From positions 1 to 64,000 of the forward strand of contig JAEOTC010000068.1 of NCBI GenBank assembly GCA_016840035.1: a DNA stretch of 64,000 nt. Reading direction: 5' to 3'. The stretch's first letter is position 1; each line of letters begins with the position of its first letter. The position numbers were made by a program, and so were the translations under genes. This DNA is from Candidatus Hodarchaeota archaeon. GTDB lineage: Archaea; Asgardarchaeota; Heimdallarchaeia; Hodarchaeales; Hodarchaeaceae. This document shows, one piece after another, positions 7,117 through 15,971 of the stretch. Under the pieces are notes generated by a model, which did no database searches, was not told where the DNA came from, and was given only the letters and a program-made list of their open reading frames with translations.

Positions 7117-7980
7117 CTATATTGGCTGATAAGTTACTGAGAGAGTTTCAATTGCTAGGAGTTTACTGGTTTCGTTATCTAACAATGAAACAAATATTAA
7201 ATACGGCTCACCCGGTACTGTTAACTCAGAGGAGTTCACTTGGAAGACTTGATCGAAGAAATTGGACGTCTCATATTTTCCTAAGACGAAAATGTACTGA
7301 CTAGTATTAACATCGTTCACTAAGAAATATAAACCACTCGAGGAGGCGGTTGAAAATTCTAATCTTAAATCTAAAGCCAAGCTTCCATTATTAATAACAG
7401 AAAAGTTCATGATCAATCCTGATTGACTGAAAGTTGTTATTGGTGTCCGCGAAACAAGAGAAACAGGGCCATATGTGTCACCGACTTTGAAAATATCAGA
7501 ACGAATAGTTTTTCCAGATCTTGAGTTAACTTTCCCTTGGGGATAAATTGTCACCTCAATATAGATTGTGTCATTTTCGGGTGTTAATTCACTCTGATCA
7601 ACGGTGTTATCACACGATAGCTCAATGGTTTCAGAACCTAAACCTGGTAAAATAATACTTGATTGATCCATTGACCACCCTGAAATTAAAGTACGATCGA
7701 TACTAAATAATGAAAATGACTCTTCCGTAATTTCAATGTTGGTTCTTTCTGTATTCTGAAGAGTGATATCAAATTTATCGATTTTGATATCGTTATCTGT
7801 TGTTTCAAAAGAAGAAAAGCCCAGGACTTCTATACCCAAAGGATCAGGAGTGTTAATTGTACCAAACATCACTATGGCGACTCCTAATCCTGCAACTACT
7901 ACAAGGCCAATTAAAAGAACAGTGGCAATTACAGGACTAATACCTCTTTTTTTTCTTCTAGATTTAAACAATTTCTTCAT
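7117..7980 (-). CDS. Archaeal type IV pilin/archaellin-like protein (class III signal peptide)
   Basis: N-terminus RRKKRG|ISPVIATVLLIGLVVVAG, then beta-rich polar domains. Confidence 0.85.
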   Translation of the reverse strand: MKKLFKSRRKKRGISPVIATVLLIGLVVVAGLGVAIVMFGTINTPDPLGIEVLGFSSFETTDNDIKIDKFDITLQNTERTNIEITEESFSLFSIDRTLISGWSMDQSSIILPGLGSETIELSCDNTVDQSELTPENDTIYIEVTIYPQGKVNSRSGKTIRSDIFKVGDTYGPVSLVSRTPITTFSQSGLIMNFSVINNGSLALDLRLEFSTASSSGLYFLVNDVNTSQYIFVLGKYETSNFFDQVFQVNSSELTVPGEPYLIFVSLLDNETSKLLAIETLSVTYQPI

Positions 7981-8252
7981 TTTCCAATTCTCACTGCTCT
8001 TTTTTTTGTTTCTTAAATGAAAACTTAATTGATTATAGTATTACTCGATTGAAATCTGTTCACATGAAACTCGTTCTTATTGTGGATTTGGCCTAAGTCT
8101 TCTCTTTTGTATCTTTCCGAACAAGTGATAAAACTTGAAGCGTAAAGGAAATTCCCAATTATCTCTGATATGAATTTTTCGTCATTAAATGTTGAATAAG
8201 ATTAAAGTTAATCCTCTTTTCACTTTAATGGTAAAATAAATAAACCGGAACA

Positions 8253-8332
8253 TCAACAGAGGTACCAGCAAAATGCTTTTCTGCTAAGCCGGACGGTAAT
8301 CAGCTTCATCGCAACGGGAAGGCCTCTGCTGA
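8253..8332 (-). ncRNA. Putative structured RNA element (unclassified)
   Basis: GC-elevated intergenic island. Minus strand forms a 10-bp outer stem TCAGCAGAGG/CCTCTGTTGA and an inner hairpin TAGCAGAA-AAGCA-TTTTGCTG; G-U pairs favour the minus strand. Confidence 0.4.
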
Positions 8333-8377
8333 CCGATACATTAGCAGTCTCTACTGAAAAGATCCTTTAGTCTTGTT

Positions 8378-10216
8378 TTACCACCTAGAAAACCCTATTC
8401 CACAAGTTTCTGATATCAACAACAAGAATAAAGCAATTTCCTCCATTTCCTGGTTTGATTCTGAAGCAACAAACGCAACACCTTCTCCATGATATAATGG
8501 TTGCATTATCATGGATATAATTGCATCTAGTGCTTTTCCAAGGGTCCACAAAGCTTCTGTTTCTACCTGTTCACGGATTTCTTTCTCATAGATGAAGGTT
8601 TTAAATTTTGAAGGAATTTTTTCTCTTACAAAATCACGGTTAGGTGGGATAATCAAAATTGAACCTTCTCTAGGAATGTTGAATCTTGACGATAACGTCT
8701 TAATATTCAGTTCTACTTGTGTGAGATATTCTACAATACTTAACCATAGTGTACCTCTTACTGCAACCTTATCATGCTCTATGGGAGCTTCTAAAGAGAC
8801 TGAACTATGATTAATCTCAACTTTTCCTTTTACTTTGGTAGCAATGTCCTTGAGTGACTCAGCTATGCCTTCAAGTCTTGGACCATAAGTAGAAATTTGA
8901 CATACTACTTGGTCGAGCTTATGGAATAGACTTACCGTAATATTCGACTCGCTGGAGGGAATTACTTCTGCTGGTGTTAGATCAAGTGCCATTGGAGATG
9001 TATCTAAAACTACAGGGATATCAGCAAAGTTATATTGAAGGCCACTTTCTCTGGTTTTTTGTAATTGAGCAGTAATTTTGGAGCTTATTTCACTTACGGG
9101 GATTGAGGGCTTGATAACGGGTTTTTCTACAATCGTTTTTGTTGGAATTGCATCTGGCTCTGCAGATAGTTGGATATCGGGTCTAATTGTTGTTTTTTCA
9201 ACTGGTGGTGCACTCAATGCCGAAGTTGGTGTTTGCAATTCCTCCTTTTCTACCACTAATTCTTGTAACTCTGGTATATCTGCTGTCTCAATTTCTCTTG
9301 CCGGGGGACTGAGTTCTCGCATTTTATACATTACTGGAGCGGACATTGTCACTACAATATCTTTTCCGGGTTGTATCACAGTCGATAACAAGACGTTGTT
9401 TCTGATATAGTTATCCTCACTAGGAGGAAACATTGCCATAGATTGGGCAATCTCTCGTGCATCATTATTGTCAATAAACTTTCTCATTTTCGCAGTATTG
9501 GAATTCTCCCCAAAAATTCTACTAAGAACATCATAAACATGTTCTCCAGCATTTGCAGAAAAATACTGTTTGAGAGGTGACTCTAAACCGAAAATCAATA
9601 TGTTATCATTATCCTCAACCCCAGGTATAGGAGTAAATGATAGAACTCGTGAAGTTTTGGAAGCCTCAATAATGGATAAGAGGTCGCTTGTATCATTTGG
9701 ATTGATAAACATCAATCTAGAAACTACACTCTCCACTCCATACCGAAGATCATGAGCAAAAGCAGTTAGTAATACTAATGCAGAGAGCATTCCATCGCCT
9801 GTTCGTGGAATAACATATATAGAATCCGCAGGAGATGTTAAAAGTTGATAAAAGGTGTCCAAATGCCTGTTCTGAGCATCTAGTACATTTCCATCAAGAA
9901 ATTGTTCAATTAAATTCAATACAATTCCCATGGTAGGGACGACTTGACGGGCATTTTTTGCGATAGGGATCAAGACTAGTGCGACAAGATCGTCAGATCT
10001 TTTTACTTGAGGAAATAGGAATATCATCCGATGATTCTGAAATCTGATAAAGTGAATTCTTTCTCCTCCCATAATCTTCTGCGAAAAGAGAGTTAGAACT
10101 TGGGTAACAGTTGCACTAATTTTTGAGTGCTCAGTTAAACGCCCTTTACCTGAGCTAAAAATTACTCTATTTTGATGAACGACAAGGAGATCGGTAGAAT
10201 CCATTTGTATATCCAT
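8378..10216 (-). CDS. Multidomain protein with N-terminal longin-like domain, possible DENN-like core, Pro-rich linker and unknown C-terminal domain
   Basis: 612-aa ORF; LFSQKIMGGERIHFIRFQNHRMIFL..LVALVLI is a longin-like helix-strand pattern; domain calls are inference. Confidence 0.55.
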   Translation of the reverse strand: MDIQMDSTDLLVVHQNRVIFSSGKGRLTEHSKISATVTQVLTLFSQKIMGGERIHFIRFQNHRMIFLFPQVKRSDDLVALVLIPIAKNARQVVPTMGIVLNLIEQFLDGNVLDAQNRHLDTFYQLLTSPADSIYVIPRTGDGMLSALVLLTAFAHDLRYGVESVVSRLMFINPNDTSDLLSIIEASKTSRVLSFTPIPGVEDNDNILIFGLESPLKQYFSANAGEHVYDVLSRIFGENSNTAKMRKFIDNNDAREIAQSMAMFPPSEDNYIRNNVLLSTVIQPGKDIVVTMSAPVMYKMRELSPPAREIETADIPELQELVVEKEELQTPTSALSAPPVEKTTIRPDIQLSAEPDAIPTKTIVEKPVIKPSIPVSEISSKITAQLQKTRESGLQYNFADIPVVLDTSPMALDLTPAEVIPSSESNITVSLFHKLDQVVCQISTYGPRLEGIAESLKDIATKVKGKVEINHSSVSLEAPIEHDKVAVRGTLWLSIVEYLTQVELNIKTLSSRFNIPREGSILIIPPNRDFVREKIPSKFKTFIYEKEIREQVETEALWTLGKALDAIISMIMQPLYHGEGVAFVASESNQEMEEIALFLLLISETCGIGFSRW

Positions 10217-10258
10217 GTTAATTCATTGGAATAATCTATGAGTTAGCTTATTAAGGTT

Positions 10259-10888
10259 TCATGATCTAAAATCATCGAACTTATAATCACCCTCTCGTAC
10301 AAGTTTTGGATTGTTAGGGCAGGTAATATCAATGATTGTCGAGGGTGATCTTTTTGGTAATATACCTTGGTCAATCCACAAATCAACCTCCGATTTTGAT
10401 AAGTTCCTGAATACCTCTGAAAAATCTACGCTTGGTTCGTGACCTGAGGTGTTTGCGGATGTACCAATAATTGGAAAATCAATTCTTTCAATAATACTAA
10501 GTAATAAATTATGTGTTGGAACCCGAAAGGCTAGAGTATTATTTCTTGATGGATTTAGATATGGAGAAAAGTTTTTCAGACCCGACTCTTTTAAAAACGC
10601 AATAAAAGTAATTGATACAGGCCACTTTTCTTTTAGCTTTGTGATTATATCATCAGATGCTTCAATGTAACGTGATACCATTTCTAAGGTCATTAAGACA
10701 CTTAATGGTTTTTCTAGTGGTCTTCTTTTTATCTTAAAAATTTTTTTTACGTTTATGTTATTTTCTATTGTTGCTACAGTGCCTAATCCATAGACAGTAT
10801 CGGTAGGATATACAGTAACCGCTCCTCTCCTCATAATTTCCACAGCTTTATCCATTATCTCTGGATCTGAGGCATTAAGCTTTTTCAA
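10259..10888 (-). CDS. tsaC: L-threonylcarbamoyl-AMP synthase (TsaC/YrdC, single domain)
   Basis: PTDTVYGL, KIKRRP..KPL, FRVP, GTSANTSG, STIID. Confidence 0.92.
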   Translation of the reverse strand: MKKLNASDPEIMDKAVEIMRRGAVTVYPTDTVYGLGTVATIENNINVKKIFKIKRRPLEKPLSVLMTLEMVSRYIEASDDIITKLKEKWPVSITFIAFLKESGLKNFSPYLNPSRNNTLAFRVPTHNLLLSIIERIDFPIIGTSANTSGHEPSVDFSEVFRNLSKSEVDLWIDQGILPKRSPSTIIDITCPNNPKLVREGDYKFDDFRS

Positions 10889-10963
10889 ATGAACTCCTCT
10901 CTCATTGAACTATTCTGAGGAAGAAAAAATTGTTTTCCGGGATTTCAAATGGAGTGGTTAAAG

Positions 10964-11728
10964 TCATTGTTGTTGTTTCATCATGTGAATAATGATCTCT
11001 CTAACAAGGCTTTCTACTGGTTTTATCACACGATTTACACTTGTAGGTCGATATTCTTTTTTCAATCGGCCATTCTCATTAACAATTTTACTTCGATCAC
11101 TACTTGATAAGAGCTGCTTTAAATCGTCACGAGCATTTAGACATGAGACCTCAATAATTCTAACTGCTGCATCTCTTAAACTTGCTACTGCACCAGATTC
11201 ACTTAACAGTTTTCCTACCTCAAAAGATGATATACGTTGGTCAGCAGGAAGATCCATCTTGTTTAGCATAATGTGGTATGGTAGTGATCCATTCGCAAGT
11301 TTATCCCCAGCTAAATCATTTATCTCTTTGAGTGCGAATTTATTTTCCTCCCATCTTGATTTTTCTGAATCAACTACACAAATCAATCCGTGGGCTCCTC
11401 GTAAAACAACTTTTCGTTGTCCAGAGTGACGTTCCTGTCCTGGTACGGTGAATAAGTGATATTTCAAAATAGGGAGGCCTGCACTTGTCTTCCCAATTCC
11501 AAAAATTCCCTGATCGAAGAACAAAGTCCGACCTGTTGGGTCTTCTAACTTTAAAAACTTATACACATTCTCTGGGTCTTCAAGACTTTTTAGAACTTTT
11601 GTTATTGTTAAAGCTGTAGTTTTCCCTGCTAAAGTTGGTCCCCAAAATACTATTTTTACTACTGGGACTCCTTGATGATCTCTTTTTATTGTTTCAAAGG
11701 AAGGTTGAGCCTGCATGATAAACACCAT
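10964..11728 (-). CDS. MglA-like small GTPase
   Basis: KIVFWGPTLAGKTT, GRTLFFD, HLFTVPGQ, NKMD are MglA-type G1-G4 signatures. Confidence 0.85.
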   Translation of the reverse strand: MVFIMQAQPSFETIKRDHQGVPVVKIVFWGPTLAGKTTALTITKVLKSLEDPENVYKFLKLEDPTGRTLFFDQGIFGIGKTSAGLPILKYHLFTVPGQERHSGQRKVVLRGAHGLICVVDSEKSRWEENKFALKEINDLAGDKLANGSLPYHIMLNKMDLPADQRISSFEVGKLLSESGAVASLRDAAVRIIEVSCLNARDDLKQLLSSSDRSKIVNENGRLKKEYRPTSVNRVIKPVESLVREIIIHMMKQQQ

Positions 11729-11770
11729 GTAACTAGTGGAGATGAAGGTTTATACAAGAGATATTTCGAA

Positions 11771-12295
11771 TTATTTTGATATTACTTGTTTCGCTAATTT
11801 TACGAAAATTTCTTCAATTTCTGAACCACCCTCTTTCGCTGAGGTTTCGTAATAAGCTAAATTTAATTCATCAGCGACTTTTCGGGCTTCTTTCTCTGAT
11901 ATTGCTCTGTTATCTACAAGATCCTTTTTGTTTCCAGCTAATGCAATGGGAACTTCTGTTTGAATGTATTTCTTAAATTCATTCAACCAATTAGGTATGG
12001 CAGTAAATGATTTCTCATCATTAAGAGCAAACATAATTAAGCATGCGGAAGCACCACGATAATAGCTCGGTCTTAGTTTCCCAAAAAACTCTTGTCCTGC
12101 AGTGTCTACAAGTATCAGTTTAACCTGTATATCATCGAGAGGGATTTTCTTTGTAGTAATATCAACTCCTAATGTGGGTAAATAGTTGGTATCAAATTTA
12201 TTTTCTGCAAAACGTCGGATGAGGGAGGTTTTCCCAACATTTCCAGACCCAATTGCACAAATCTTGAGTAAGTATTCATTATTACCGTTTGTCAT
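11771..12295 (-). CDS. Rab-like small GTPase (Ras superfamily)
   Basis: GSGNVGKT, PTLGVD, DTAGQE, YYRGA, NKKD, ETSAK; no C-terminal Cys. Confidence 0.93.
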   Translation of the reverse strand: MTNGNNEYLLKICAIGSGNVGKTSLIRRFAENKFDTNYLPTLGVDITTKKIPLDDIQVKLILVDTAGQEFFGKLRPSYYRGASACLIMFALNDEKSFTAIPNWLNEFKKYIQTEVPIALAGNKKDLVDNRAISEKEARKVADELNLAYYETSAKEGGSEIEEIFVKLAKQVISK

Positions 12296-12320
12296 GTATT
12301 AAAAGCCTCTGGTATTACCG

Positions 12321-13280
12321 TTATAAGCCCATTTTTGAAAGATCTTGTAATGACTGTCGCATATCATCGATAAATTCATCACGTTCAGAACGTGTTTTTT
12401 CCCTCAACATGTCAATGAAGAGAACCTGCCCATCTTCGATAAAGAGGCGTACCTCATAATGTGCAGCAGGGAATATTCCTGCAGGTAAATCATCCATTGG
12501 TTCGAGTTTAACAACATCCTTTGAAAATAGATGTAAGTGCTCCTTAATAGCTGAAAAAACAGTATTCCCAATAATAACTATTTCTCTCTCTAGGTGAGAA
12601 GGTACCTCCATATCTTTTAATTTTTCAGTGACCACACTTAGAGGGGTCGAGGATGTAGCATCAACTTGACGTGTAACAACAACCTCCGTTTCCTTAACAA
12701 CCCTTGGTTTTGAAGAGGGCGCGGATGTGGGAGTACTAATTGGTTTGGGTGTAGGAGTCGTGGATTGTGTAGCTGTCATTGCGGGTGCTGGAGACGGTTG
12801 ACGACTTGGCGTGGGTTTTGACGTTGAAATTGGTGCTTTAGAAGGAGCTGGGGCTGGACGAGGTTTTGGTGTCGTCGCAGGAGCTGGTCGTGGAGTGGAA
12901 ACTGCAGCTTGGGCAGGAGCGGTACTTGGTCGTGAAACCACCTCAGTTGTTGGTTGGTCTCTACCTGGAGAACTCGGTTCTTGGGGTACTTCTCCAAAAA
13001 TAGCAAGAAATTCTTTACCCTCTATACCAGGATCGAGACTATCAATCCTGTAAACCATTCCATATTGTTCTTGACGCATCTGTTGTGCAGCTTTTGCTGA
13101 AATGAATTTTCTTCTAACGGGTGCCTCTTCTCCCTTCCATATGAAAATTTTTCTTACTCCTTCATCCACAATGATATACACTGCATTATTCTGTAGTCCT
13201 CCGAGGGATGACACATCACACGGAGTTAAAGTCCCATCGTCGTTTACTGTAAACTTCTTTACAAGGTTAGAGTTGCTCAC
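12321..13280 (-). CDS. Gelsolin-domain protein (single gelsolin domain + Pro/Thr/Ser linker + C-terminal domain; 1DGelX-like)
   Basis: AVYIIVDEG.RKIFIWKG..APVRRKFISAKAA is a gelsolin-repeat pattern; long PAP/TP-rich linker. Confidence 0.8.
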   Translation of the reverse strand: MSNSNLVKKFTVNDDGTLTPCDVSSLGGLQNNAVYIIVDEGVRKIFIWKGEEAPVRRKFISAKAAQQMRQEQYGMVYRIDSLDPGIEGKEFLAIFGEVPQEPSSPGRDQPTTEVVSRPSTAPAQAAVSTPRPAPATTPKPRPAPAPSKAPISTSKPTPSRQPSPAPAMTATQSTTPTPKPISTPTSAPSSKPRVVKETEVVVTRQVDATSSTPLSVVTEKLKDMEVPSHLEREIVIIGNTVFSAIKEHLHLFSKDVVKLEPMDDLPAGIFPAAHYEVRLFIEDGQVLFIDMLREKTRSERDEFIDDMRQSLQDLSKMGL

Positions 13281-13496
13281 AAGTTATCAACACACAGTTC
13301 TAAGTGCAAAATCATGAGTGTTTGATGATTTTCACGGTTATTCTATATCTAGAACCTATCAATACTACTTTTTAAAATCCACTCAATATATTGACTCAAT
13401 AAAGCTTTGAAAATTCATTCATAAATTTCTTTCTTTTTATCCTTCAACGTTTTCTAGATATATTTTTCGTTTAGTCTGGGTTTGGAACTTACTTGT

Positions 13497-14318
13497 ATGA
13501 AAATGAAGATAGACAATTGGATTGAAAGGGGATTAAGTTCATTAAGCGCTGATGAAATATTTGACGGCATGCAATTACTAGAAGGAGCAATGCAACGAGT
13601 ATTTAGAAGTAACAAACCTAAAATAGCATTAAGAATAATTAAAGGTACGAATGAAATATTAATCGGAAAAGGATTAAATGAGATATTTTGTAAATTCATA
13701 CTAGATATCATTCCACTTTTCAGGAAGAAATTAGGTGATATGGATTGGTTTATGTTAATTCCTGATATCTTATCAATATTGAGAAAACAGAGTATGTCAA
13801 TGTGCACATCAAACTTTCTTAACAGATTAATTCTAGAGTCAAAACCCGTACAAGAAGATTTTCTGGAATCTTTTGTGTCAAGCATTGCCCAAAAACAGTA
13901 TACAAAGGAAGTAGTTGTAGATTTAAATTATTATCATGCAGGAGTATTAGTTTTTAAAAAGGACTATGTAAAATGTTTTACTGTTTTAAAGGCATGGTAC
14001 AAATTAACACCGTCTAGTCCACAGGTGTTAACTTATCTAACATTAGCAGAATTAAATGCATATGAAGTAGAGGGATGTGGTAAGTACTTGAGTGAGGCTA
14101 AATCTCTTCCAGATAAATCATCATACATTGAACTTTCTTCTCATATTTTCAAATCAGTTGACCTAGGAAATTATGATCTATATTTATCAATGATAGAAGA
14201 ATTCACCGACCTGGTGAATGTGAAAAAAGACGCACTGCTTAAAGGATTGTGCGATGGCATTGCTGATTTTCTGAAACCAAAGAATAGTGCGGGTCTTTTT
14301 TCATTATTTGGAGGATAA
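13497..14318 (+). CDS. Alpha-solenoid/TPR-like protein, Get4/TRC35-like candidate
   Basis: All-helical amphipathic pattern; see finding; ATG 13497 preferred to TTG 13482. Confidence 0.55.
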   Translation: MKMKIDNWIERGLSSLSADEIFDGMQLLEGAMQRVFRSNKPKIALRIIKGTNEILIGKGLNEIFCKFILDIIPLFRKKLGDMDWFMLIPDILSILRKQSMSMCTSNFLNRLILESKPVQEDFLESFVSSIAQKQYTKEVVVDLNYYHAGVLVFKKDYVKCFTVLKAWYKLTPSSPQVLTYLTLAELNAYEVEGCGKYLSEAKSLPDKSSYIELSSHIFKSVDLGNYDLYLSMIEEFTDLVNVKKDALLKGLCDGIADFLKPKNSAGLFSLFGG

Positions 14319-14837
14319 AATTGCTTCTCTTATTTTTTCTACTGCTTCCTTTCCTGTTTCAGCTTTAATAACTTGATTTCGAATAGGAGGATGATTCAAA
14401 GAGCCTCGTTCACTAATTTCTTTACTCCAACCTTCTATAGAGGCAATGCATACAATCGGTTTATTATAGAGAGCAGCATAGGATAATTCTGATAATGTAC
14501 CAACTCCCCCTCCACATGCAATAACACCATCACTTGATAGTGAAACAATCGGATTCCGTCCCCAATGTAAGTATGTAGAGATTTTTACAGTTAAATAGGG
14601 AGAAACTTCGGCACTATCAGCTCCCTCAGGGAGAATACCTATTGAAATCCCATTAGCATCATGAACTCCCCTTACAGCTGCTTCCATCACTCCTCCTCTT
14701 CCACCACAAATTAGAATGGAATCAGATCTGGCTACTCCCTTGCCTATTTCATAAGCAATATTAAATTGTTTCTCTGATCGAATTTTTGAGTCTCCGATTA
14801 TGCCTATCTGTAACCTTCTTTTACTCATAATAACCAC
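14304..14837 (-). CDS. LOG/SLOG family protein (TIGR00725-like)
   Basis: CGGRGGVMEA, GILP, RN, GGGVGTLSE. Confidence 0.88.
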   Translation of the reverse strand: MVIMSKRRLQIGIIGDSKIRSEKQFNIAYEIGKGVARSDSILICGGRGGVMEAAVRGVHDANGISIGILPEGADSAEVSPYLTVKISTYLHWGRNPIVSLSSDGVIACGGGVGTLSELSYAALYNKPIVCIASIEGWSKEISERGSLNHPPIRNQVIKAETGKEAVEKIREAILSSK

Positions 14838-14841
14838 TATT

Positions 14842-15390
14842 TCATGTATAGTTCTTTTTTCCCTCTATAGATGGTTTTATTTTCTTTTTAGAATTCAAAA
14901 AATTTAATTCTAAGGAATTTGGAATGAGTTTTTCTAGAAAGATAGCTAATGATCCTACTTCAGAGTGTGGTTGGTTGGTAATTGCAATATTCCAATCTGC
15001 ATAATGAAATACTTTCGCAGGCACTTTTTTCCCCCCTACAATTATCATTAAGTGGTCTAGCCTCTCGTCTGAGTTTTGTATTGAGTTGAATCTCTGATCC
15101 AACTGAAATTTAGTTATATTTTCTCCGTACATTGTTAGATGAATTATTAATCCATGTTTCTGCTTCCATTCCTCAACAAAATCGATCCACTCATCATAAG
15201 GGATAAATACAATTGAGAATGAACCACCCCATTCTGAGACAACTTTCGATACAGATCGAATAATATTTTCATCGGTTTCCCCAGCAATTGTTATTCCTTT
15301 CGCCCCTAAAGCCCTGGCAACCAAAGCAAGGTGAGATGTAATTCTTTTATCACGATTTTTACGATGACCAATTCGAAATACTGTTACCAA
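14842..15390 (-). CDS. trm56: tRNA (cytidine(56)-2'-O)-methyltransferase
   Basis: RIGHR..RDKRITSH, WGG, HLTMYG, VGGKKVP, NQPHSEV. Confidence 0.95.
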   Translation of the reverse strand: MVTVFRIGHRKNRDKRITSHLALVARALGAKGITIAGETDENIIRSVSKVVSEWGGSFSIVFIPYDEWIDFVEEWKQKHGLIIHLTMYGENITKFQLDQRFNSIQNSDERLDHLMIIVGGKKVPAKVFHYADWNIAITNQPHSEVGSLAIFLEKLIPNSLELNFLNSKKKIKPSIEGKKNYT

Positions 15391-15413
15391 GTAGTACTCA
15401 CTTTTTTACAGAT

Positions 15414-15971
15414 TCATTTCTTCAGGTGGTTCCGAATCGTATGAGCAAGAGTATTGAATGATTCGTCTACATTTTCACCTGTTTTAGCGGAAGTTTCTAA
15501 ATATGGAACCTCAAAATTCAAATCGTATTTCCCCTTAAGCTCCTCAATATAAGCTTGAGCTTCATCTGGGGTAATAGGATCATCTACTTCATCACGAAGG
15601 TCTACTTTGTTTCCTAGGAGAGTAATTGGCATCACTCCTCTTCCCGAGTTCCGATAAAGCTCTTCTATCCATGAGGTTAAATTTGTAAAAGAGTCTCGTC
15701 TAGTAATATCAAAAACTAAAAGTCCTCCATGCGATCCCTTATAATAGAGCTCTCGAACACTGTTGAAACGCGGTTGTCCTGCTAAATCCCAAATTTGGAA
15801 CTTAACATTCTTTTTCCCTTCCTCTGTAGAAATTTGGGTTTTTTTAACCGCGAAATCCGCGCCAATCGTCATCACATAACCACTCGAGAATTGTTTCCCA
15901 AGATAACGTTCACGTAGCGCTGTTTTTCCGACTGCACCATCGCCTAATAGACATATTTTCATCAATAACAA
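15414..15971 (-). CDS. Rab-like small GTPase (Ras superfamily)
   Basis: GDGAVGKT, TIGADF, FQIWDLAGQ, LVFDIT, GNKVD, ETSAKTG; no C-terminal Cys. Confidence 0.93.
   Translation of the reverse strand: MLLMKICLLGDGAVGKTALRERYLGKQFSSGYVMTIGADFAVKKTQISTEEGKKNVKFQIWDLAGQPRFNSVRELYYKGSHGGLLVFDITRRDSFTNLTSWIEELYRNSGRGVMPITLLGNKVDLRDEVDDPITPDEAQAYIEELKGKYDLNFEVPYLETSAKTGENVDESFNTLAHTIRNHLKK

Follow-up and report, generated by a model that had tools for sequence, protein, structure and literature searches.

A gelsolin gene linked to two small GTPase genes in Hodarchaeales, and a neighboring orphan protein gene with a structured RNA at its 3' end

In a 64,000-nucleotide (nt) stretch of DNA from a Candidatus Hodarchaeota archaeon (GenBank assembly GCA_016840035.1, contig JAEOTC010000068.1; the whole stretch is called the window here), six genes encode, in order, a gelsolin of the GelX type, a Rab-like small GTPase, an MglA-type small GTPase, the enzyme TsaC, an orphan protein of 612 amino acids (aa) that we call p612, and an archaeal type IV pilin. 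We propose, with belief and doubt about evenly balanced, that this gene run is real and vertically conserved in the order Hodarchaeales yet is not one machine, and that its functional core is the triad of gelX and the two GTPase genes, with one or both GTPases acting on GelX. The best-supported unit runs from gelX through the Rab-like gene to the MglA-type gene, probably as one transcript. The literature searched did not describe this cluster, and the functional links proposed for it rest on gene context and predicted folds.

RESULTS

A compact run whose gelsolin-GTPase end survives rearrangement

The window belongs to contig C2 of an assembly of 4.3 Mb with 87% completeness. All six open reading frames (ORFs) are on the minus strand, at 12321-13280 (gelX), 11771-12295 (Rab-like), 10964-11728 (MglA-type), 10259-10888 (TsaC), 8378-10216 (p612), and 7117-7980 (pilin), exactly where a preliminary description of this DNA had placed them. 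Computed from the program-listed ORF starts, the gaps between the first five genes are 25, 42, 75, and 42 nt, and 397 nt separate p612 from the pilin ORF. The operon-like character attributed to the first five genes, which are co-oriented and spaced by only 25 to 75 nt, was borne out, as were the gene identities when compared with Pfam, NCBIfam, and Protein Data Bank (PDB) entries, a DENN assignment for part of p612 excepted.

Hodarchaeales, an order of the Asgard class Heimdallarchaeia, was sampled by two families, f1 (21 genomes of the window's genus) and f2 (two genomes, G022 and G023), and loci of the genus were counted only where the contig was long enough to show gene order. Every informative locus in the genus kept the order gelX-Rab-MglA-TsaC-p612, with p612 identity as low as 50%, and a metagenomic relative with 41% p612 identity had the same five-gene order. 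Median junctions over 13 to 16 loci were 22 nt for gelX to Rab (13 loci), 39 nt for Rab to MglA, and then 76, 55, and, to the pilin, 386 nt; the two junctions within the triad are the tightest of the run. Synteny within the genus carries little weight, because the entire neighborhood is conserved to the same extent, among its members a second Ras GTPase gene and the genes for Trm56, a SLOG protein, a Get4-like protein, a Dph6-like protein, and quinolinate phosphoribosyltransferase. The seeming lack of the triad beside p612 in genome G016 was discarded as evidence because the TsaC gene of that genome contains a scaffold gap of 100 N.

Since genus synteny does not discriminate, the run could also be an inherited series of unrelated genes whose short gaps reflect nothing more than a compact archaeal genome. 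We consider this explanation possible though rather doubtful. TsaC sits inside the run, and further tRNA and translation enzymes (Trm56 and the Dph6-like protein) lie nearby together with the SLOG and Get4-like proteins, all of which would suit an uncoupled neighborhood, as would the observation that GTPase genes of Asgard archaea do not, as a rule, share operons with their regulators, the roadblock and longin genes, and that gene layout rarely helps (Tran et al. 2024, PMC10933270). Such an account fits less easily with family f2. In G022, gelX, Rab, and MglA remain together (gaps of 29 and 149 nt), although a small ORF and a subtilase gene stand at TsaC's place ahead of p612 and the pilin, and no Get4-like gene was found within ~1.5 kb upstream. 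In G023, gelX is followed by Rab on a single 3.9-kb contig, and p612 lies elsewhere, beside ribosomal and exosome-type genes and a convergent pilin gene. The triad thus survives in this family while its surroundings change, and the linkage of a gelsolin with two classes of small GTPase, as noted in the preliminary description, is conserved in both Hodarchaeales families sampled.

An uncoupled neighborhood also fits poorly with a pattern seen in three other families. There, five loci have a Roadblock/LC7 gene immediately next to GelX (L105 and L106 in f7, L108 and L110 in f5, and L112 in f4), which is hard to account for without a link between GelX and GTPase systems. Because Roadblock genes adjoin GelX in those three families and GTPase genes themselves do so in Hodarchaeales, GelX is repeatedly tied to small-GTPase components. 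This recurrent pairing is the best context evidence for a functional triad. Family f3 has no Roadblock gene at this place; there, the next gene downstream of GelX on its strand is an ORF of 93 to 96 aa with weak Urm1-like matches (L098:3688-3969, L100:4982-5272, and L101:3719-4000).

GelX and its relation to characterized Asgard gelsolins

GelX consists of an N-terminal gelsolin domain at about residues 6 to 97, a Pro/Thr/Ser-rich linker of ~110 aa, and, at the C terminus, a conserved domain X of similar length (~110 aa). Its match to the Pfam Gelsolin family (PF00626) stays below threshold (16.5 bits versus 21; E = 0.0077); phmmer comparison with the PDB recognizes the domain by sequence, matching Asgard gelsolins, among them 2DGel3 (7c2h, E = 2e-8), and, more weakly, adseverin and villin (E of about 1e-3). 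Full-length homologs, 27 to 31% identical over residues 5 to 317, occur throughout the class, and a feature-based search of a protein atlas matched only archaeal clusters without a name.

The nearest characterized counterpart in layout is 1DGelX of Thorarchaeota, which binds actin with a dissociation constant of 7.7 µM and severs without calcium (Akil et al. 2020, PMC7444086). Both proteins join a single gelsolin domain through a linker to a non-gelsolin C-terminal domain X, and the gelsolin domain from the window matches solved Asgard gelsolins. They differ in that domain X of the Thorarchaeota protein is predicted to be a coiled coil (PMC7444086), whereas that of the window protein is beta-rich with a terminal helix, and in that 1DGelX was published without a described GTPase gene context, whereas GelX in the window lies beside GTPases. 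Elsewhere, gelsolins were found to co-precipitate with Lokiactin, as was an Arf GTPase, and protrusion dynamics that depend on actin were seen in a cultured Hodarchaeales strain (PMC13716822). All three published findings, the severing by 1DGelX, the co-precipitation with Lokiactin, and the protrusion dynamics, fit a mechanism in which GTPases act on GelX.

Two GTPases of different classes

The first GTPase, 174 aa long, belongs to the Ras family (Pfam Ras, E = 2.6e-51), and all of its top 60 PDB matches are Rab or Ypt proteins, the best being Rab21, Rab22, Rab5, and Rab1 (E = 1e-37). We call it Rab-like because it lacks the C-terminal Cys of a prenylation motif, its terminus reading ...AKQVISK. 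The second matches MglA structures at E = 1e-18 and probably starts at the ATG at 11716, where its orthologs begin, which gives a protein of 250 aa. It has G1 to G5 with TxxGQ replacing DxxGQ and an intrinsic switch I arginine, as expected of the MglA family, and the motifs GPTLAGKTT (GxxxxGKT), RTLFFD (R63-T64), TVPGQ (G93-Q94), NKMD (NKxD), and SC(L) are invariant or nearly so among 26 aligned homologs. A C-terminal extension of ~60 aa follows G5. Identity of the MglA-type GTPase is 80 to 97% within the genus, compared with values down to ~50% for p612 and ~36 to 44% for TsaC, and 67% in family f2. Judged by their sequences, both GTPases look functional, the MglA-type protein having all G motifs along with R63 and Q94.

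The intrinsic arginine finger in RTLFFD and the TVPGQ motif are common to this GTPase and to MglA of Myxococcus and Thermus (PDB 3t12, 6izw, and 6hjm). Those bacterial systems differ from the window in several respects. No stand-alone mglB, the gene for the Roadblock GTPase-activating protein (GAP), adjoins the archaeal GTPase gene: the assembly contains 10 Robl_LC7 matches, none of them on contig C2. The nearest roadblock-fold domain is instead the N terminus of p612, encoded two genes downstream and fused to ~500 further residues. The window GTPase also carries its ~60-aa extension, and regulation of the pilus machinery in archaea is not homologous.

MglA-type GTPases are widespread in the class: 79 of 83 genomes encode them, with two to three paralogs apiece. 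One paralog, ~50% identical, lies just past the window (G000:C2:69411-70067, plus strand) and adjoins a urocanase gene; the same pair occurs in G011. Family f3 has a recurrent order of an MglA-like GTPase, a NERD-like protein of ~230 aa, and a coiled-coil protein of ~590 aa with weak crescentin- or Fez1-like matches (L074:5226-8647, L075:7965-11376, and L082:8006-11219). A second Ras GTPase of the window (15414-15971; Pfam Ras, E = 1.4e-45) forms a minus-strand group at 14304-15971 with aTrm56 and a SLOG cluster-4 protein, an arrangement kept in the genus and at locus L090.

A GTPase switch on gelsolin: proposal and counterevidence

In the mechanism we favor, the GTP-bound Rab-like GTPase, the MglA-type GTPase, or both would bind GelX, probably through domain X, and this binding would set the place or time at which the gelsolin domain binds and severs Lokiactin filaments, and so would control their severing or remodeling. 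The MglA-type GTPase has an arginine finger and a catalytic glutamine of its own and, by analogy with bacterial MglA, would require a platform of the roadblock or longin type in order to be turned off. That platform could be the N-terminal domain of p612 or the product of one of about ten Roadblock genes located at other sites in the genome; p612 qualifies only because of its longin/roadblock domain. A more specific version, in which GelX is a direct effector of the Rab-like or MglA-type GTPase, or of both, and p612 is the cognate GAP or guanine nucleotide exchange factor (GEF) platform, seems to us unlikely.

Several observations weigh against a GTPase-GelX core. The synteny comes mostly from one genus, so that it is largely shared ancestry, and the second family is represented by two genomes. 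A BLAST survey of 14 GelX loci in families f3 to f7 found a Ras-family ORF beside GelX in none of them. Outside Hodarchaeales, MglA-like genes have unrelated neighbors (urocanase, the NERD-like and coiled-coil proteins, HAD, and GHMP kinase) and no Ras-family neighbors. Because domain X differs, being beta-rich here and a predicted coiled coil in the assayed Thorarchaeota 1DGelX, the two proteins are at most putative orthologs. Finally, unrelated genes are often mixed in archaeal operons, and here TsaC lies inside the run.

p612 combines a longin/roadblock domain with a predicted inactive DHH/DHHA1 module

p612 matched no Pfam or NCBIfam family. Its profile had no match in the PDB and, among 1.84 billion cluster representatives, retrieved only 31 clusters, all of the same family; a feature-based search of the protein atlas gave no usable match. 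The homologs are all annotated as hypothetical Hodarchaeales proteins. By profile, p612 is present in 23 of 23 genomes of the order (21 of 21 in f1 and both in f2) and in none of 59 genomes from other families of the class. The database start at 10204 yields a protein of 608 aa, whose numbering is used for the domains below.

AlphaFold2 modeled the whole protein with a mean predicted local distance difference test (pLDDT) score of 79, and the C-terminal half with a pLDDT of 93.5 and a predicted template modeling score of 0.91. Fold searches with these models assign residues 1 to 105 to the longin/roadblock fold, whose core is beta-beta-alpha-beta-beta-alpha, with matches to the longin Rab GEF subunits Mon1 and Ccz1 (Z scores of 8.7 to 8.8, root mean square deviation [rmsd] of 2.7 to 2.9 Å over 93 to 101 residues), to MglB (Z of 8.2 to 8.4, rmsd of 2.7 to 3.1 Å over 87 to 90 residues), and to Asgard roadblock proteins (Z of 6.7 to 7.7); these scores are moderate, yet the matches cover the whole domain. 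Residues 106 to 305 are DHH-like and match pAp phosphatase (8a8k, Z of 9.1 to 9.2 over 160 to 162 residues) and RecJ, GAN, and Cdc45 (Z of 8 to 9). After a disordered linker at residues 306 to 371, for which there was no fold match, residues 372 to 496 are DHHA1-like (GAN 5ghr, Z of 8.3 over 110 residues; Foldseek probability of 1.0; DHHA1 families in six of six ESM Atlas rows), and residues 513 to 608 resemble a P-loop-kinase-like Rossmann domain without Walker A, matching the N-terminal part of T4 polynucleotide kinase (Z of 8.1).

The order of a DHH-like and then a DHHA1-like fold, with an intervening linker, is that of RecJ, GAN, and Cdc45 and of the NrnA and pAp-phosphatase proteins. Unlike those phosphoesterases, with which p612 shares no sequence similarity by profile search of the PDB and the 1.84 billion proteins, it adds the longin domain, a 65-aa disordered linker, and the C-terminal Rossmann-like domain, and it lacks their catalytic motifs. 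None of the DXD, D, DHH, D, and GGGH motifs falls in invariant or nearly invariant columns of the sequence alignments, and in the DHH-like part only PR.G.G and AHD are conserved. Because DXD, DHH, and GGGH are absent from conserved columns, the module is predicted to be catalytically dead. From these models, p612 is predicted to be a longin/roadblock domain followed by an inactivated DHH/DHHA1 pair and a Rossmann-like end.

This architecture bears on the idea, put forward in the preliminary description, that p612 is a longin/DENN-type GEF. One longin/roadblock domain is present, as in Mon1-Ccz1 and Fuzzy-Inturned, but there is only one, no partner longin subunit was identified, and the alpha/beta domain that follows matches DHH rather than DENN. 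Foldseek, VIA, and VIA-wide returned no DENN, folliculin, or SMCR8 chain among the best 50 matches listed. These matches lend no support to the DENN reading, and the longin part alone was retained.

A wider version of that idea takes the six genes and the RNA downstream of p612 as one polarity and protrusion system, with p612 as its exchange factor and the type IV pilus as its output, as with Myxococcus MglA. All genes are indeed co-oriented, the N terminus of p612 matches both the Mon1/Ccz1 longin domains and MglB (Z of 8.2 to 8.8, rmsd of 2.7 to 3.1 Å), a homologous pilin gene adjoins p612 in each of the two families, and a stand-alone roadblock gene is missing beside the gene for the MglA-type GTPase. 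We nevertheless regard a single system as very improbable. About 500 of the 608 residues of p612 resemble an inactivated RecJ/NrnA-type module, and p612 homologs in G023, L091, L092, L094, and L095 have no GTPase or gelsolin neighbors, added to which are the absence of DENN-family chains among the matches listed and the variable position of the pilin gene described below. A complex predicted from two copies of p612 residues 1 to 305, the MglA-type GTPase, GTP, and Mg scored 0.00; made without control runs, it is uninformative either way.

A probable older partner for p612

Adjacency of p612 to the GTPase genes is kept only in one family and one further genome. More distant homologs (L091, L092, L094, and L095/L096) lack GTPase and gelsolin neighbors, and L091 stands alone. 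What several of them have instead is a relative of the helical, putatively Get4-like protein that in the window lies divergently from gelX (13482-14318, plus strand; no Pfam family). A hidden Markov model of this protein matched the ORF directly upstream of the p612 homolog, on the same strand, in L092 (185-1075), L094 (2-586), and L095/L096 (L095:6946-7848), at E = 1e-42 to 1e-77. The genome of L095, GCA_001940645.1, is one we take to be Heimdallarchaeota LC_3. In a quick maximum-likelihood tree (short search, midpoint rooting), the Get4-adjacent p612 lineages fall outside the f1 and f2 clades. The occurrence of the pair in three distant lineages suggests that the Get4-like/p612 partnership is old and predates the GTPase neighbors. 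The Get4-like gene is probably the older genomic partner of p612, whose deeper ties are to that gene and to its own RNA.

These associations lend themselves to another explanation, in which p612 is a separate module, an RNA- or nucleotide-binding pseudo-nuclease working with its 3' RNA and the Get4-like protein, for example as a ribonucleoprotein or as a chaperone or targeting factor, and its proximity to GTPases is secondary. The co-oriented Get4-like gene directly upstream in deep-branching lineages is in keeping with it, DHH/DHHA1 and C-Ala folds are nucleic-acid-binding folds, and the RNA follows the p612 stop codon in 20 of 21 genus genomes, pilin or no pilin. Set against this, a longin/roadblock domain is typically a GTPase platform, the deep branching comes only from the quick, midpoint-rooted tree, and the RNA was not detected outside the genus with a low-diversity covariance model, R1. 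On balance, we think a wholly separate p612 module improbable.

p612 also has paralogs of two types. The first is a stand-alone protein of ~256 aa with the C-terminal half only (DHHA1-like and Rossmann-like), found at G000:C73:1688-2248 (minus strand) and in many congeners; the second, of ~570 to 590 aa, occurs in several congeners (G016:C1:3042011-3043759 and others) and has no Get4-like neighbor at the one such locus surveyed, L039. Distant p612 homologs are followed by proteins with prenyltransferase-type (alpha-toroid) matches that range from faint to clear (L095:10170-13358 and L097:3134-6045). One lineage has a single protein of 1062 aa; another has two, of 407 and 419 aa, each homologous to one half of it.

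A covarying RNA directly 3' of p612

The structured element that the preliminary description noted downstream of p612 proved to be real. It is an RNA of ~130 nt (8243-8372, minus strand) that begins 5 to 6 nt past the stop codon of p612, with a T-run after it. The 130 to 140 nt after the stop form a GC-rich island, 100% identical over ~75 nt in the closest relatives, where the flanks have diverged. Comparative analysis was needed because the single-sequence fold of the intergenic element was not significant (z = -0.44). RNAalifold on 16 orthologous copies gave eight helices around a three-way junction, with 35 pairs. Pairing holds in 97.1% of cells, compared with 24 to 54% when the partners are slid, and compensatory changes support 15 pairs, compared with 4 to 5 when slid; none of 500 shuffles reached the observed values. 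Many G-U pairs fit only the minus strand, that of p612.

The RNA is single copy in the genome. Covariance model R1 located it in 20 of the 21 genomes of the genus, in each case 3 to 5 nt after p612, and also at L090. Outside the genus, this model, itself of low diversity, found it in neither f2 genome and in none of 59 genomes from other families, with 4.3 bits in G022 when filters were off. By eye, G022 has two complementary stems at the corresponding place, for which we do not claim homology. No Rfam family matched the RNA: at E <= 10, positions 8150 to 8420 returned only a spurious internal ribosome entry site match. The window as a whole had no Rfam match at gathering thresholds, and no tRNAs were found in it. 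Present with or without the pilin gene, the RNA belongs to p612 and not to the pilin; it is either a 3' untranslated region element or a co-transcribed small RNA, of a class without an Rfam match.

TsaC and the pilin as neighbors

TsaC (L-threonylcarbamoyladenylate synthase) scores above the curated equivalog cutoff for TsaC/Sua5 proteins (TIGR00057, 138.1 bits versus 123.2; PF01300, E = 5.9e-40) and is the sole stand-alone PF01300 gene of the assembly, the other match lying inside an 802-aa ORF. It is a housekeeping t6A (N6-threonylcarbamoyladenosine) enzyme riding along, a passenger as had been suspected, because it is absent from the cluster in G022, displaced by the subtilase gene and small ORF.

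The pilin matches TIGR02537 (28.1 bits versus a cutoff of 20) and has the class III signal KKRG/ISPVIATVLLIG (sequence MKKLFKSRRKKRG/ISPVIATVLLIGLVVVAG) and a hydrophobic N-terminal helix. A homolog follows p612 in 10 of 18 genus loci, at L090, and in G022; in the other 8 of 18 genus loci it is missing, and the Dph6-like gene comes directly after p612. In G023 it is convergent. Where present, it is separated from p612 by ~390 nt that hold the structured RNA and the T-run. The pilin gene is probably a variable neighbor in a separate transcription unit, and its link to the GTPases is weak, which disfavors the view of the pilus as the output of the system.

DISCUSSION

In eukaryotes, dedicated effectors connect small GTPases with the control of actin. 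The genomes of Asgard archaea are rich in GTPases, gelsolins, and roadblock and longin proteins, and it is hard to tell which of them pairs with which. The cluster described here offers a matched set, consisting of one gelsolin and two GTPases in Hodarchaeales, along with a recurrent pairing of GelX and Roadblock genes elsewhere. Two objects are new here as well: an orphan protein in which a longin domain is fused to a predicted inactivated DHH/DHHA1 pair, and a covarying RNA without an Rfam match. If GelX is a direct effector of the Rab-like GTPase, the MglA-type GTPase, or both, the version that we consider unlikely, actin severing switched by GTPases would already have been present in the archaeal lineage closest to eukaryotes.

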